This document shows, piece after piece, positions 5,614 through 10,028 of a DNA stretch of 64,000 bases (position 1 is the stretch's first letter; each line of letters starts with the position of its first letter). The translations under genes and the position numbers were made by a program. The notes beneath the pieces were generated by a model. It made no database searches. It was not told the origin of the DNA and saw nothing but the letters and a program-made list of their open reading frames with translations. This stretch comes from Archangium sp. (GTDB lineage Bacteria; Myxococcota; Myxococcia; Myxococcales; Myxococcaceae), in the NCBI GenBank assembly GCA_047600485.1, contig JASGKS010000001.1:6848259-6912258 (forward strand), given 5' to 3'.

Positions 5614-5656
5614 TCTCCCTCTCCTTGCGAAGCGGGGAGAGGGCCGGGGTGAGGGG
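5614..5656 (+). repeat. Dispersed palindromic repeat, copy 1 (subtype with TTGCGAAGC loop), immediately after the TAA stop of the upstream + gene
   Basis: Sequence TCTCCCTCTCCTTGCGAAGCGGGGAGAGGGCCGGGGTGAGGGG. It contains the hairpin CCCTCTCC / GGAGAGGG followed by a G-tract tail, and is nearly identical to the copy at 61193. Confidence 0.7.
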
Positions 5657-5690
5657 CTGGTGCAACCTCAACCGTCGAGGGGGAACTCAC

Positions 5691-7658
5691 ATGAAGGCCG
5701 TGCTCAAGGTGTTGCTCGGGCTCACGCTCGGGCTCGTCATCGCCGAGTTCGCGTTCCGCATGCGCGACGACGGAGCGTTTCCGCATCTCAACTTCTACGT
5801 GGCCGACGAAGCGCTCGGCGCGCGGCTGCAGCCCAACGCGTCGATGAAGCTCCGCGTCGGCGAGAACAACCCGCTCACCACGGTGACGACCAATTCTCGC
5901 GGCTACCGCGGCGCGGAATGGGCGGCGCCTTCGCCGAACGACGTGCTGGTGGTCGGAGACAGCCAGACCTTCGGCCTCGGCGTGAACGACGACGAGACGT
6001 TCAGCGCGAAGCTCGCGAAGGAACTGAACGCGCCGGTCTTGAACCTCGGCGTGCCGACGTGGGGCCCGCTCGAATACTCGGCCGCGCTCGAAGAGCAGTT
6101 GAAAGACCGCAAGCCGCGCGCGTGCGTCTACGTGCTCAACCTCGCCAACGACCTGTTCGAGGCCGACCGCCCGAACTCGAAGCGCCACAAAATCTGGGAC
6201 GGCTGGGCGGTGCGCGCAGAGACCGCGCCGGCGTCGGTGACGAACTTCCCGGGCCGCTCGTGGTTCATGTCGCAGAGCCACCTGGTGTTCGGCGTTCGCA
6301 AGCTGATGCACAAGAAAGACGTGTTGGACGAGGGGTTCCGCTCGGAAGGTTCGTTCACCGACGTGGTCGCGGCGTCCGAGACGATGCGCGCCGAAGCGGC
6401 CGATGAGCCGACGAAGAAGTTCCTCGCCGCGCGCAAGGAACTCGACGACCAGCTCCGCGCCGTGAGCTCGAAGCTCGAGGAGCACTTCGAGCAGAAAATC
6501 TACGACGACGACGAGTGGGCGACGAAGTTGAGCGAGCGCGCTGGAGAGAACCCCAACGACATCTTCGACGAAGACGGTGAAGCGGGCCGCAGCGTGAACA
6601 GCACCGCGCTGCATCTGGTCACCGCGGCGATGTCCGACTCCAACAACGACGCGTGGCTCAAGAAGCTCGCTGATGAGAAGGGCGACCCGGAATTGAAGCG
6701 CATCATCGACGAGCGCAAAGAACTGCGCGCCAAGATGCTCGCGCTGCGCATCGAGTCGCAGGCCCTCAACGAGGTGCCGCTCGATCGCGTGCTCGCGCGA
6801 ACCAAGAAGGCGTGTGAAGCGGCGGGCGCGCGGCTGCTGGTGGTGACCTTGCCGCTCGACGTGATGGTCTCGCCCGACGAGTGGAAGAAGTACGGCACCA
6901 AGCCCATCGACCTCACGCCGACGGTCGCGCTGCGCCAGAGCCTCACGCGACGCATCGAAGCGCTGGGCGCCGAAGCCGTCGACCCGACGTTCGCGCTCGC
7001 GGCGGTCGAGCCCGGAGCGTTCCTCGACAAGGACCTGCACATGACTCCGAAGGGTCACGAGCAGGTCGCGGGAGTCATCGCCAACATCCTGCGCTCGCCG
7101 CCAAAGGCGCCGGTGCTGCAGCTGCCTGCCGGGCGTTCGTGGCTGCCAACGCAGGCGGAGTGCGAGGCCGCTCCGGAGTGCACGGTGAAGGGCAGCTCGA
7201 AGGCGAAGTGTTCGACCAAGTTGATTCGCGAGTGGCTGTTCGTCGACTGCGAGCTGTCACCCGATGGGCCGCACCTCAAGCTGGTGAACGTCACGAGCGG
7301 CGGTCACGGCGACGCGTACAGCGCGAGCAACGGGCGTTTCTACGTGCCGATTCTCGAGGGCGACTCGGTGCGCGCGACGTTCTCGTGGTTCATGGAAGAG
7401 CGAGAGCTGCAGCTCGATTTCCCCAAGGGCGGGAAGCTGGCGATGTCGTTCACCGACGCGAAGAAAGCGTCGCCTCCCGCAAGCTCGAACGTCGCTACGC
7501 CCGCCGCGTTCCCCGAGACCGACGTGTCGTGCCCCGCGGGCGAGCTGGTCTCGGGCGCGACGCGGCGGTGCGCGAAGCCGTGCTCGGCTGATCATCGCTG
7601 CGCCGAAGGGCAGCATTGCGAGCCGTGGCCGACCGGAGAGTTCTGCGCAACGCCTTGA
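5691..7658 (+). CDS. SGNH/GDSL-hydrolase-family protein with an N-terminal TM anchor, a coiled-coil insert and a Cys-rich C-terminal domain
   Basis: The start MKAVLKVLLGLTLGLVIAEF is preferred over the upstream TTG of the track ORF. A GDS block VLVVGDSQTFGLGV and a block V DLHMTPKGHEQVA are present. The C-terminus has about 14 Cys. A paralog lies at 15843..17873 on the opposite strand. Confidence 0.6.
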   Translation: MKAVLKVLLGLTLGLVIAEFAFRMRDDGAFPHLNFYVADEALGARLQPNASMKLRVGENNPLTTVTTNSRGYRGAEWAAPSPNDVLVVGDSQTFGLGVNDDETFSAKLAKELNAPVLNLGVPTWGPLEYSAALEEQLKDRKPRACVYVLNLANDLFEADRPNSKRHKIWDGWAVRAETAPASVTNFPGRSWFMSQSHLVFGVRKLMHKKDVLDEGFRSEGSFTDVVAASETMRAEAADEPTKKFLAARKELDDQLRAVSSKLEEHFEQKIYDDDEWATKLSERAGENPNDIFDEDGEAGRSVNSTALHLVTAAMSDSNNDAWLKKLADEKGDPELKRIIDERKELRAKMLALRIESQALNEVPLDRVLARTKKACEAAGARLLVVTLPLDVMVSPDEWKKYGTKPIDLTPTVALRQSLTRRIEALGAEAVDPTFALAAVEPGAFLDKDLHMTPKGHEQVAGVIANILRSPPKAPVLQLPAGRSWLPTQAECEAAPECTVKGSSKAKCSTKLIREWLFVDCELSPDGPHLKLVNVTSGGHGDAYSASNGRFYVPILEGDSVRATFSWFMEERELQLDFPKGGKLAMSFTDAKKASPPASSNVATPAAFPETDVSCPAGELVSGATRRCAKPCSADHRCAEGQHCEPWPTGEFCATP

Positions 7659-7703
7659 TCCGCCTCGGGCGAAACGGGAATTACCGGGCCGAATATGTAG
7701 GGC

Positions 7704-8594
7704 ATGGCTCCAGTTACGAACCGACCTGCTCCGCGAATCCCACCTCCCCCGCCTCGCCCTGCGCCGGCGCCAATCCGCCCTCAGGCCCCCGCTCGTAGTG
7801 CTCCGCCGCAGACGCTGACTCAGCGGGGCGTCAGCTTCTTCGAGCGCAACCGCACCAACCTGCAGCAGACCGGAGCGGCCGTCATGCGCGCGCGGACGCA
7901 GCTCACCGACGCCGCCAACGCTGCGCGTCGCCTGCAAGGAAATCCGGTCGTCAACGCGCGCAACACGACGTCGACGTTCGGTCGCGCGATGCGCCCGCTG
8001 CGCATCGGTGGCTCGGTGTTCGGTATGGCGAACAACGTGCGTCGTCTGCCGGGTCAGATGGCGACGGCGTTCACCGACATTCGCCGCGCGTTTCGCACCG
8101 GCTCGGCCGCCGACCGCATTCAGGCCGAGCGTTCGTCGCGCACCGCGCTGAGCACGTATTCCACCATCGGCGACACGGCCGCCGCGTTCCGTCGCAACGC
8201 GCGGGCCGCGACGTACGGCGTGACGCGCACCATTCAGCAGCGTGCTCCGCAGCTCGCCGCGCGTGTCGGTGAGACCGCGACGCGGCTGGCTGAATCGAGC
8301 GCGGCGCGCATCGCGACCCGCGTCATCTCCAACCCCGCGGTGCGCGCGACGGCTTCGGTCGCTGGCCGCTCGCTCGCGCGCTTCGTACCTGCCGCCAACG
8401 TGGCCATCGCCGCGCTCGACATTCGCGAAGCGCGCCGCGCGCTGGCCGACCCGAACGCCAGCACCGGCCGTCGCGTGACGTCGGTCATCACCGCGATTGG
8501 CTCGACTGTCGCGGCCTCCAACATCCCCGTCGTGTCGCAAATCGGCGCGGCGGTCTCGACCATCTCGTCGGCGATCGGCTGGTTGTTCTCATGA
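7704..8594 (+). CDS. Hypothetical protein: Pro-rich N-terminus, Ala/Arg/Thr/Ser-rich body, hydrophobic C-terminal segment
   Basis: 296 aa. It starts MAPVTNRPAPRIPPPPPRPAPAPIRPQAP... and ends AIGSTVAASNIPVVSQIGAAVSTISSAIGWLFS. GC3 is lower over the first ~40 codons. Its stop overlaps the start of the downstream gene (ATGA). Confidence 0.45.
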   Translation: MAPVTNRPAPRIPPPPPRPAPAPIRPQAPARSAPPQTLTQRGVSFFERNRTNLQQTGAAVMRARTQLTDAANAARRLQGNPVVNARNTTSTFGRAMRPLRIGGSVFGMANNVRRLPGQMATAFTDIRRAFRTGSAADRIQAERSSRTALSTYSTIGDTAAAFRRNARAATYGVTRTIQQRAPQLAARVGETATRLAESSAARIATRVISNPAVRATASVAGRSLARFVPAANVAIAALDIREARRALADPNASTGRRVTSVITAIGSTVAASNIPVVSQIGAAVSTISSAIGWLFS

Positions 8595-9613
8595 TTCGTC
8601 ACAAGCTCGCGGCGATTCCCGAGAAGGCTCAGCTGCAGTTGCCGGTGGCGATTGCTCCGTCGCTCGACGCGTTGGTGGTGAAGGCTCCGAAGGTCGTGCC
8701 GTTCACCGCCGAAGACCTGATGCTCTTCGCGGATCAGCTCGCTCGTGAGCGCGCGCCGAAGATGAAACGGAAGTACGGAGAGAAGCTGCAGCTCGGAGAC
8801 GTCGCCGTCATCGACGTGCTGGCGTACCACCAGGGCAAGCTGCTCCCGTTCAGCGCGCGTCAGGGCATGGAGATTGAAGTCGGCGCCGGCGATTCGCTGC
8901 CGTGGCTCGACGAGTCGCTGCTCGAGTGCGCGGTCGGTGACGGGCTCGAGCTGCCGGTCACGTTGCCGAACGACGAGCTGGTCGAGGCGATGCGCGGAGC
9001 CGAGGTCACGTATCTGGTCGACGTCGTGTCGGCGTACCGCGTCGAGCTGCCGTCGGTGGACAGTGCGGACTTCTTGTCTCTGCTGAGCCGCAAGGCCACG
9101 ACGCTCGACGGCGCGATGGAAGAACTGTCGGAGCAGCTCGAAGCGCAGCGCATCGCCGAAGCGTGGGAAGAAGCGCGCGAGTGCGTCATCGACGAGCTCG
9201 TTCGTCGCACCGAGGTAACGCTCTCGCCCGAGCTGGTCGACGAAGAAATCAAGCGCGCGTGGATGCGCGTCGAGCTGCCGCTGCTCGAGTCGAAGGGCTT
9301 CGAGCCCGATGAACTTCGTGAAGCGCTGAGCGGTTGGCTCGGTGATGGCCCCACGCGCACCGACGCCGAGCGCAGACTGCGGCTCGCGCTCGGAGTGAAG
9401 GCCTTCGCCGAGAAGGAACAGCTCACCTTCGACAAGGACGCGATGAAGTTGATGGTCGACGACGCGAAGGCGCGCTTCGGAATCAACAAGGAAGAGGTGC
9501 GCAAGGCGCTGAAGGACCCGCGCGCTCCGGCGCACGACCAGATGGTCGCGGTCGGAATTCAGATGCGCGTGCTCGAGCTGGCGATGAGCGCTGCGAAGAT
9601 CGACTGGGTGTGA
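8591..9613 (+). CDS. Trigger-factor-like protein (PPIase-like plus TF C-terminal domain) lacking the N-terminal ribosome-binding domain
   Basis: 340 aa. The stretch GDVAVIDVLAYHQGKLLPFSARQGMEIEVGAGDSLPWLDESL...VTLPNDELVEAMRGAEVTYLVDVVSAYRVELPSVDSADF parallels the E. coli Tig segment GDRVTIDFTGSVDGEEF...MIPGFEDGI...[36 protein letters not shown]. The C-terminal helical arm begins TLSPELVDEEIKRA. There is no GFRxGKVP-type N-domain. Confidence 0.55.
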   Translation: MIRHKLAAIPEKAQLQLPVAIAPSLDALVVKAPKVVPFTAEDLMLFADQLARERAPKMKRKYGEKLQLGDVAVIDVLAYHQGKLLPFSARQGMEIEVGAGDSLPWLDESLLECAVGDGLELPVTLPNDELVEAMRGAEVTYLVDVVSAYRVELPSVDSADFLSLLSRKATTLDGAMEELSEQLEAQRIAEAWEEARECVIDELVRRTEVTLSPELVDEEIKRAWMRVELPLLESKGFEPDELREALSGWLGDGPTRTDAERRLRLALGVKAFAEKEQLTFDKDAMKLMVDDAKARFGINKEEVRKALKDPRAPAHDQMVAVGIQMRVLELAMSAAKIDWV

Positions 9614-9614
9614 A

Positions 9615-10028
9615 TCAGCGCGGCGTGATGGGCGCCTTCTTGAACCGGCCCCACGCGACGAACGCCGCGAGACCACCCATCACGAAGTTGGGCACCAGGC
9701 CGCCGTACTCTCCACGCGAGACGTGGAAGCCGGCGGCGAGAATCATCACCACGACGAGCCCGGCGGCGGCGAGCGCGGTGAGCTTCGGCTGAATGCGCGT
9801 GAGCGACGGGAGCAGCAGCCCGATTCCTCCGAGCAGCTCGCTGACGCCGATGAAGCGCACCAGCGCGGGTGGAACGGCGCCGGGCCACACCATCTGCTTC
9901 GCGAGCTCTTCGATGGGCGCGGTCGACTTCATGAGACCCGCCATTCCGAACGCGAGCGCGAGCAGGACCTGAACGATCCACAGCGCGATGTTGAGACCCT
10001 TCGAGGGCTGGGTGGTTTCGGTCGACAT
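9615..10028 (-). CDS. DoxX-family membrane protein
   Basis: 137 aa with four TM helices. The LALAFGMAGLMK and LLGGIGLLLP motifs are typical of DoxX. It is divergent from an HxlR regulator, the classic pairing. Confidence 0.8.
   Translation of the reverse strand: MSTETTQPSKGLNIALWIVQVLLALAFGMAGLMKSTAPIEELAKQMVWPGAVPPALVRFIGVSELLGGIGLLLPSLTRIQPKLTALAAAGLVVVMILAAGFHVSRGEYGGLVPNFVMGGLAAFVAWGRFKKAPITPR

Follow-up and report, generated by a model that had tools for sequence, protein, structure and literature searches.

In a 64-kb stretch of Archangium sp. DNA (hereafter the window; GC ~67%), a gene for an unusual basic protein, here called orfA, lies directly upstream of a gene for a protein related to trigger factor (TF). 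The two probably make up a self-contained module consisting of a cationic, amphipathic-helical protein and its own TF-derived chaperone. Both genes are real and the domain architecture of the TF-like protein is clear. The two gene families are found side by side almost without exception, whichever of them is used as the starting point, the pairs duplicate and diverge together, and no third gene is conserved beside them. Exact protein matches tie orfA and the TF-like gene to QM817_31220 and QM817_31225, respectively, of an Archangium sp. metagenome-assembled genome (MAG). The coordinates of both genes and of their features are collected in Table 1.

Trigger factor is the textbook ribosome-bound chaperone, and the first-pass annotation of the window had taken the downstream protein for a TF paralog devoid of the ribosome-docking domain. 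Family profiles, structure comparison and alignment all agree on this assignment. The NCBIfam profile TIGR00115 matches residues 22–310 of the protein (E 4.4e-36; profile positions 107–390 of 410) and Pfam Trigger_C (PF05698) matches residues 171–310 (E 3.4e-14, above the gathering score), while a profile of the TF-paralog family aligns to residues 111–418 of E. coli TF (PDB code: 1w26) with E 1.9e-52. The AlphaFold2 (AF2) model of the protein has a predicted local distance difference test score (pLDDT) of 87.9 and a predicted template modelling score (pTM) of 0.76, and it contains helices H172–H334 in the arm domain. The top Foldseek matches of this model are the TF structures 1w26, 2vrh, 7zgi, and 3gty (E 2e-15 to 4e-14). 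The TIGR00115 score of 124.6 bits is below the equivalog cutoff of 180.2 and, judged by its sequence, the protein is not trigger factor in the strict (equivalog) sense.

The ribosome-binding N-domain, including the GFRxGxxP docking motif, is absent from the TF-like protein in the alignment with canonical TFs, and Pfam Trigger_N gives no match in it. Only the first ~20 residues are unmatched, and residues 22–60 correspond to the inter-domain linker of TF; the earlier statement that the first ~60 residues are unrelated to the TF N-domain was therefore exaggerated. The two Pfam domains anticipated for 8591..9613 behaved differently, in that Trigger_C was found whereas FKBP_C gave no match in the protein. 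Compared to canonical TF (Tig; 1w26 and the T. maritima structure 3gty), the window protein has the same linker, FKBP head, and C-terminal arm fold, and both are acidic, but it lacks the N-domain with GFRxGxxP, scores below the TIGR00115 cutoff, and has a fixed partner gene that is not the usual housekeeping context. In the window clade the aromatic pocket of the peptidyl-prolyl isomerase (PPIase)-type domain is altered, with LPWLDE in place of I-P-G-F198-E of E. coli, E in place of Y221, and Y in place of F233, whereas most other paralogs among 73 partner chaperones retain F, Y, and F (LPGF, DYPVE, RFLVD). Because these pocket residues are replaced, prolyl-isomerase activity of the window protein is doubtful. 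The protein also matches phrog_26774, whose function is unassigned (E 1e-16; profile positions 131–421 of 435), and some phages therefore encode TF-like proteins.

The upstream gene could have been an artefact of high GC content, a possibility that the same annotation had raised, and this was not borne out. GC at third codon positions (GC3) is 0.815 in the frame of orfA, which is similar to the neighbouring genes, and the long antisense open reading frames (ORFs) have no such signal. At least 25 homologs were found; those from Archangium-like genomes align over the full length at 45–68% identity, and Corallococcus, Pyxidicoccus, and others have more distant ones. No Pfam or NCBIfam family matches orfA. 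Coding-type substitution extends to the very beginning of the gene: comparison of the first 60 codons with three relatives shows third-position-biased differences (e.g., 13/16/34 by codon position) and in-frame indels, and in the alignment the starting ATG of every one of these relatives falls on a single shared position (M-x-P-[IV]-T-N-R). The NCBI call for orfA has 236 residues and starts at Met61. Because of the codon bias, the indels, and the shared ATG, the 296-residue form is preferred over that call; on this comparative evidence the true start is the ATG at 7704, and the database gene start needs correction. The longer form adds, at window positions 7704–7883, a conserved Pro-rich N-terminus with a PPPPP tract, for which a need for EF-P would be expected. 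An MxP[IV]TNRP start is common to orfA and some distant members, occurring in 6 of 157. A Pyxidicoccus member (L003, 5917–7215), when read from an upstream ATG, begins MAPAPITKRPPPPPPPPPPP and has a 20-residue poly-Pro N-terminus.

The composition of the orfA product is extreme, with a pI of ~12, 41 Arg, 0 Lys, 58 Ala, and 11 acidic residues, and the family as a whole (157 members) has a median net charge of +19 and an Ala content of 21%. The Archangium clade (n = 12; orfA and P0002–P0012) is essentially free of Lys, with 0 Lys against 32–46 Arg, except for one member with 3 Lys. Corallococcus and Myxococcus members are rich in Lys (up to 42 residues) despite a similar genome GC, and the TF-like protein of the window, which has 21 Lys, uses this residue normally.

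The orfA product had also been described as disordered, and this description holds for the Pro-rich residues 1–37 only. Residues 38–296 are predicted to be helical, at low confidence (mean pLDDT 60.6), and are amphipathic, with a mean hydrophobic moment of 0.371 compared to 0.247 ± 0.025 for shuffled sequences (z 4.9). The stretch of highest pLDDT spans residues 120–150, and the family form of the central motif reads LPGQxxTAxxDIRxAxRTGSxxD. A Foldseek search of this low-confidence model against the PDB gave nothing below E 0.5. Some long members from Archangium and Hyalangium (L012–L014, L017–L020, L024, and L092; P0114, 642 residues) contain 2–4 tandem central segments of ~130 residues, each with a DIRxAxRxGS motif, followed by a single C-terminal module. 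Profile matches of the family to designed helical repeats and apolipophorin-III in the PDB (E ≥ 0.004) were treated as compositional. A description of the family as 11-residue repeats of the apolipoprotein, synuclein, or LEA type was likewise rejected; pooled autocorrelation shows the ordinary helix periodicity (i+4, i+7, i+11) with no peaks at 22 and 33, and explicit 11-mers are found only past the C-terminal module in a few members. These extensions (P0175, P0202, P0206, P0219, and P0023) consist of perfect repeats and carry KDTAKKVGEGI four times, GAQWAGKKIGQ four times, GARAVGSAVAT five times, or VVRNTARRAVD three times and end in ...FFKGW, ...FSGW, or ...LKFW. Their periodicity is that of amphipathic helices on lipid surfaces and is not family-wide.

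The most conserved part of the family is the C-terminal module of ~75 residues, which is 60–70% identical across the whole family compared to 25–35% for the rest of the protein and forms the very end of the chain in 90 of 115 members. Its family consensus is GRFVPGxNVAIAALD...DPNASTGxKVTSxITAxGS..AATNIPVVSQxGAAVS...F. The C-terminal segment of orfA is rich in Ser, Thr, Gly, and Ala, has a conserved N-I-P break inside, and is only moderately hydrophobic: its Kyte-Doolittle mean over 19 residues does not exceed 1.38, and 1.6 is the threshold customarily applied to transmembrane segments. The orfA product has no N-terminal signal-like hydrophobic stretch. By these measures the module is not a clear membrane anchor. 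The same value falls short of what a tail anchor would be expected to show, and some family members run past the module with amphipathic repeats.

Table 1. Genes, domains, and motifs of the orfA/TF-like pair in the Archangium sp. window
Feature	Coordinates	Strand	Description
orfA	7704..8594	+	296 aa; very basic, amphipathic-helical; family mainly restricted to Myxococcota; NCBI QM817_31220 (from Met61)
Pro-rich N-terminal region	7704..7814	+	Residues 1–37, MAPVTNRPAPRIPPPPPRPAPAP...; non-helical in AF2 model
Motif Q-R-G-V-S-F-F-E-R-N-R-T	7821..7856	+	Residues 40–51; invariant in Archangium clade; columns Q40, G42, V43, S44, F46, E47, N49
Central motif R-L-P-G-Q-x-A-T-A-x-x-D-I-R-x-A-x-R-T-G-S-x-x-D	8043..8114	+	Residues 114–137; (near-)invariant columns
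C-terminal conserved module	8367..8591	+	Residues 222–296: GRFVPxxNVAIAALD...DPNASTGRRVTSVITAxGS..AASNIPVVSQIGAAVSTISSAIGWLFS; three short predicted helices, small-residue-rich
ATGA stop-start overlap	8591..8594	+	orfA TGA, TF-like ATG; from the sequence; same 4-nt overlap in L006, L007
TF-like gene	8591..9613	+	340 aa, pI 4.8, QM817_31225; TF linker, FKBP-like head, C-terminal arm domain
FKBP-like (PPIase-type) domain	8771..9055	+	~Residues 61–155; profile vs 1l1p E 2e-25; beta-strands in AF2 model
Trigger_C domain	9101..9520	+	Residues 171–310, Pfam PF05698; helical arm domain runs on to residue ~335

The pairing of the two families was examined in both directions. A scan with the orfA-family profile, using one genome per species, yielded 153 confirmed loci, of which 80 were fetched, and the six-frame ORFs of 87 loci in the pairing test were searched with hidden Markov models of both families. 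A TF-like gene is present directly downstream on the same strand in 83 of the 87 loci. Among the four exceptions, one is cut by a contig end and three (L003, L004, and L081) truly have no adjacent TF-like gene. These three are divergent, the end of the C-terminal module in L003 is degenerate, and they may be orphans that are served in trans or decaying copies. In the reverse test, the TF-paralog profile identified 15 loci in metagenome contigs, five of which begin at or within ~100 nt of a contig edge; in all ten that retain upstream sequence an orfA-family gene lies directly upstream. The same was true for three further loci reached from TF paralogs (two from Myxococcus and one from Stigmatella). 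The search for the same gene pair in other genomes, which had been suggested for this locus, thus found it in many myxobacteria. Clustering of the flanking ORFs revealed no third conserved gene, and only the pair recurs across >19 paralogous subfamilies. What looked like a third family proved to be the shadow ORF on the strand antisense to the Ala-rich gene, and the repeated occurrence of protein kinases is due to chance.

The two proteins have also diverged in parallel. Over 73 pairs, the pairwise distances of one protein are correlated with those of the other (r = 0.89; Mantel p = 0.001), which partly reflects shared phylogeny, and their subfamilies match one to one. Several genomes carry 2–3 pairs. 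Paralogous pairs from the same genome sort together as well, which shows that each duplication and divergence involved the pair as a whole. The claimed ATGA overlap between the two ORFs is present, and the ORF list contains no alternative start codon upstream of its ATG in the TF-like frame. The translational coupling read from it is confined to the window clade, including L006 and L007; elsewhere the profile matches of the two genes are ~10 to 700 nt apart, so that what holds in general is an operon-like adjacency and not translational coupling. One predicted protein of 281 residues (P0186) opens with the C-terminal module of orfA and closes with an FKBP fragment of the TF-like type, the two being joined by sequence that looks out of frame. 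Rather than a natural fusion, it most likely represents an adjacent pair that was read through owing to a frameshift or a wrong gene call.

The orfA family is narrowly distributed. It comprises 276 clusters at 50% identity among 1.84 billion representative proteins, and its loci are almost all from Myxococcota, namely Archangium, Myxococcus (including M. xanthus), Corallococcus, Pyxidicoccus, Cystobacter, Hyalangium, Citreicoccus, and Vitiosangium. No known Pfam domain, including toxin domains, was found in 40 diverse or atypical members, tblastn gave no match to the family in phage and plasmid collections, and PHROGs contained nothing for orfA. Five loci (L045, L075, L082, L049, and L080) from MAGs labelled Vulcanimicrobiota, Burkholderiales, or 'bacterium' have a GC content of 56–64% compared to 68–73%. 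They form a separate clade with its own MSEIR... N-terminus and keep both the pair and a nearly identical C-terminal module. This clade is either a real second lineage, by horizontal transfer or ancient presence, or the product of mis-binning, and the pair may exist outside Myxococcota if the binning is right. At one locus from a myxobacterial MAG (L002; 1889–4557 and 8116–8379) the pair lies between genes matching fvmX5, an FtsH-like AAA+/M41 protease, and an fvmX3-analog (Pfam). These families are associated with nucleoside triphosphate (NTP)-dependent conflict systems, and this context, which was seen in no other locus, is probably coincidental.

Truncated TF paralogs as such are already known. 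In the survey of 15,575 genomes by Wan et al. (2024, mBio; PMC11559001), the N-domain was missing from nearly all additional TF copies, and in the Myxococcales multi-copy TF (up to seven) was confined to Cystobacterineae. The M. xanthus truncated paralogs MXAN_6153 and MXAN_1178 as well as MXAN_1713 did not co-sediment with ribosomes, improved the refolding of GAPDH, and showed stress or sporulation phenotypes, the MXAN_6153 mutant being the most sensitive to H2O2 and to 1% NaCl (PMC11559001). The deletion mutants grew normally at 30 °C and had no defect in motility, predation, or fruiting bodies, and a pull-down with MXAN_6153-MBP recovered the basic ribosomal proteins S4, S2, and S7 together with single-peptide hits (PMC11559001). 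It was concluded that the paralogs are kept through subfunctionalisation as general chaperones (PMC11559001).

The window protein fits into this class by its architecture and its Archangium source; the Cystobacterineae paralogs, at 1–7 copies per genome, have the same PPIase-like head and arm domain and no N-domain, and the canonical tig gene lies outside the window. Its family groups with paralogs of M. xanthus, Corallococcus, and Stigmatella. In the literature and cluster names searched, no orfA-family neighbour of MXAN_1178 or MXAN_1713 came up, and from Myxococcus a homology search returned only proteins of the MXAN_6153 type. The gene upstream of MXAN_6153 is MXAN_6152, a member of the orfA family, so that MXAN_6153 and the window protein both adjoin such a gene; the window protein differs in belonging to another subfamily (~36% identity), in its altered PPIase pocket, and in the ATGA overlap. 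Refolding activity and the lack of ribosome binding may be extended to the window protein by homology only. The gene upstream of MXAN_6153 is not mentioned in the text and supplements of Wan et al. that were examined (PMC11559001), nor do the locus tags MXAN_6152 and MXAN_6153 occur in the other papers of the literature searched. It therefore appears that, within this literature, the fixed partnership of a truncated TF paralog with the orfA family has not been described before.

Applied to this locus, the published conclusion would make the TF-like protein a general chaperone and its upstream gene a mere neighbour, which we regard as highly improbable. The generic refolding of GAPDH, the stress phenotypes, and the broad, partly overlapping pull-down lists are in line with it (PMC11559001), and an ORF so rich in GC and in Ala might conceivably have been annotated in error. 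The neighbour is, however, a real and conserved gene, and its near-obligate two-way adjacency argues strongly against this explanation, having outlasted duplications and altered flanks and being found, through transfer or retention, in a second lineage too. Moreover, the two families share the same narrow range, as seen in the small number of orfA clusters and in the restriction of multi-copy TF to Cystobacterineae.

A pairing that persists through duplication, changed flanks, and a second lineage is what a dedicated chaperone-partner module predicts. Since the TF-like protein has no ribosome-docking domain, it would act post-translationally, off the ribosome. It retains the substrate cradle of TF, formed by the C-terminal arms and the FKBP-like head, and the enclosure of small, basic proteins by TF is known, S7 being one of them (T. 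maritima TF with S7; PDB code: 3gty). The charges of the two proteins are complementary, the strongly positive partner having a pI of ~12 in the window clade and the chaperone a pI of ~4.7. In the proposed mechanism, both proteins would be made from one transcript, and in the window clade translational coupling through ATGA would favour matched amounts. The acidic TF-like protein would then bind its basic partner after synthesis and keep the amphipathic helices and the C-terminal module of small residues from aggregating or from meeting a membrane too early. Release would follow once the partner has reached its destination. The most plausible one is a lipid surface of anionic character, for instance the cytoplasmic membrane, and the conserved module may pack or oligomerise there. 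We only infer that the two proteins bind each other, which of them serves the other, and to what site the partner is delivered, and the orfA product is accordingly a presumed client. The membrane destination is a guess, since the C-terminal module falls below transmembrane hydrophobicity. The dedicated chaperone that had been suggested for this locus thus gains from the near-invariable pairing, while the partner might instead act as an adaptor or be a neutralised toxin.

A known precedent for such a module is PceT/RdhT of Desulfitobacterium and Dehalobacter, a TF paralog without the ribosome-binding domain that is encoded in an operon with one specific partner and is thought to act post-translationally. 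The client of PceT is a Tat-exported, cofactor-containing reductive dehalogenase, which is recognised through its twin-arginine signal peptide. The window pair is alike in logic, but orfA belongs to an unrelated family and has no Tat motif, cofactor domain, or enzyme domain, and the pair is here multiplied into several co-diverging copies per genome. No rdhA-like gene was found among the surrounding ORFs, and orfA has no twin-arginine consensus motif. Type III secretion chaperone/effector pairs, toxin-immunity pairs, and eukaryotic Get3/SGTA, which serve tail-anchored proteins, follow a similar logic, in which a small operon, in many cases with a stop-start overlap, encodes a membrane-active or aggregation-prone partner that is kept inert until delivery; they have no sequence or fold relation to the window pair, with which no secretion or insertion machinery is associated.

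Several observations weigh against a dedicated chaperone and its client. The C-terminal module of the partner is more conserved than the chaperone itself and probably contacts something other than the chaperone, and it is too weakly hydrophobic for a transmembrane anchor. Three family members, as described above, have no adjoining TF-like gene. The truncated paralogs from M. xanthus had no suppressing effect on the aggregation of GAPDH in vitro (PMC11559001), which argues against a strong general holdase, not against a specialised one. In addition, MXAN_6152 is not recognisable in the MXAN_6153 pull-down table, which was obtained with a chaperone-deletion lysate and lists unmapped WP accessions and several unresolved 'hypothetical protein' entries.

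The strong conservation of the C-terminal module is also what would be expected for contact with an invariant cellular target, and it leads to a rather unlikely alternative in which the basic partner is a docking subunit that replaces the lost ribosome-binding domain in trans. Such an adaptor would tether the TF module to the membrane or to a polyanion (rRNA or the nucleoid), and the two proteins together would constitute a relocated, two-component holdase serving other clients. A fixed partner gene goes along with the loss of the N-domain, the extreme positive charge and the amphipathicity of the partner suit binding to an anionic surface, and MXAN_6153 pulled down many proteins besides its neighbour. 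On the other hand, the 2–4 internal repeats or long variable N-terminal regions of some members are unusual for a docking subunit, three members do without an adjacent chaperone, and the partner-first gene order is typical of client-chaperone and toxin-immunity pairs.

This gene order, combined with a 4-nt overlap, is typical of a toxin followed by its neutraliser, and an alternative that we consider unlikely makes the orfA product, with its cationic and amphipathic character, an agent of membrane permeabilisation, whether used as an effector or harmful to the producer itself, with the acidic TF-like protein as its immunity or antitoxin chaperone. The cationic amphipathic helices and the small-residue helix-turn-helix module with small-xxx-small stripes are compatible with such a role, as are the multiple diverging copies of the pair per genome and the fact that myxobacteria are predators; the sensitivity of the MXAN_6153 mutant to H2O2 and NaCl could reflect damage by an un-neutralised partner. 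Nevertheless, deletion of the chaperones leaves growth at 30 °C normal and causes no defect in predation, and orfA has no signal peptide and no recognisable secretion-system gene nearby. PADLOC gave no match for the two proteins and two homologs, and Pfam gave no toxin match. Furthermore, the gene is absent from phages and plasmids, and its conserved part is C-terminal and its variable part N-terminal, which is the reverse of most polymorphic toxins. The dedicated chaperone-partner module continues to be our preferred explanation.

The surroundings of the pair vary. In the window it is flanked by a gene for an SGNH/AlgX-like hydrolase upstream and by DoxX downstream, and in L006 and L007 by carotenoid and photolyase-type genes. 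The upstream gene (5625–7658), which ends 45 nt before orfA, encodes 677 residues with weak matches to SGNH/GDSL hydrolases and AlgX and a Cys-rich C-terminal tail with a weak WAP-like match; it is not kept beside the pair in relatives. Two long antisense ORFs (7257–8540 and 8234–9676) were rejected as real genes, as GC3 is highest in the plus-strand frames and the homologs and domains are on the plus strand. A promoter and terminator scan of the locus was uninformative, no Rfam families or tRNAs were found in the window, and the repeats in the locus are only short chance matches.

The finding draws its value neither from a new protein fold nor from a new mechanism. For the retention in a few lineages of additional TF copies that are independent of the ribosome, a sole answer has been published, namely subfunctionalisation of general TF duties. 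Here the extra copies are tied to one specific uncharacterised family, and the pairs duplicate and diverge together, which reframes why the paralogs exist. The pair would add a second, unrelated example, after PceT/RdhT, of a TF recruited as a private chaperone, and it would establish the orfA products as a new protein family, whose C-terminal module is conserved to an unusual degree. If the partner were an adaptor, it would reveal an unrecognised class of two-component, site-anchored, ATP-independent chaperones multiplied in myxobacteria; if it were a toxin, a membrane-permeabilising protein would be kept inert by a TF-derived 'immunity' chaperone. The question has now become concrete in the genetically tractable M. 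xanthus, where it can be addressed through the binding and epistasis of MXAN_6152 and MXAN_6153.

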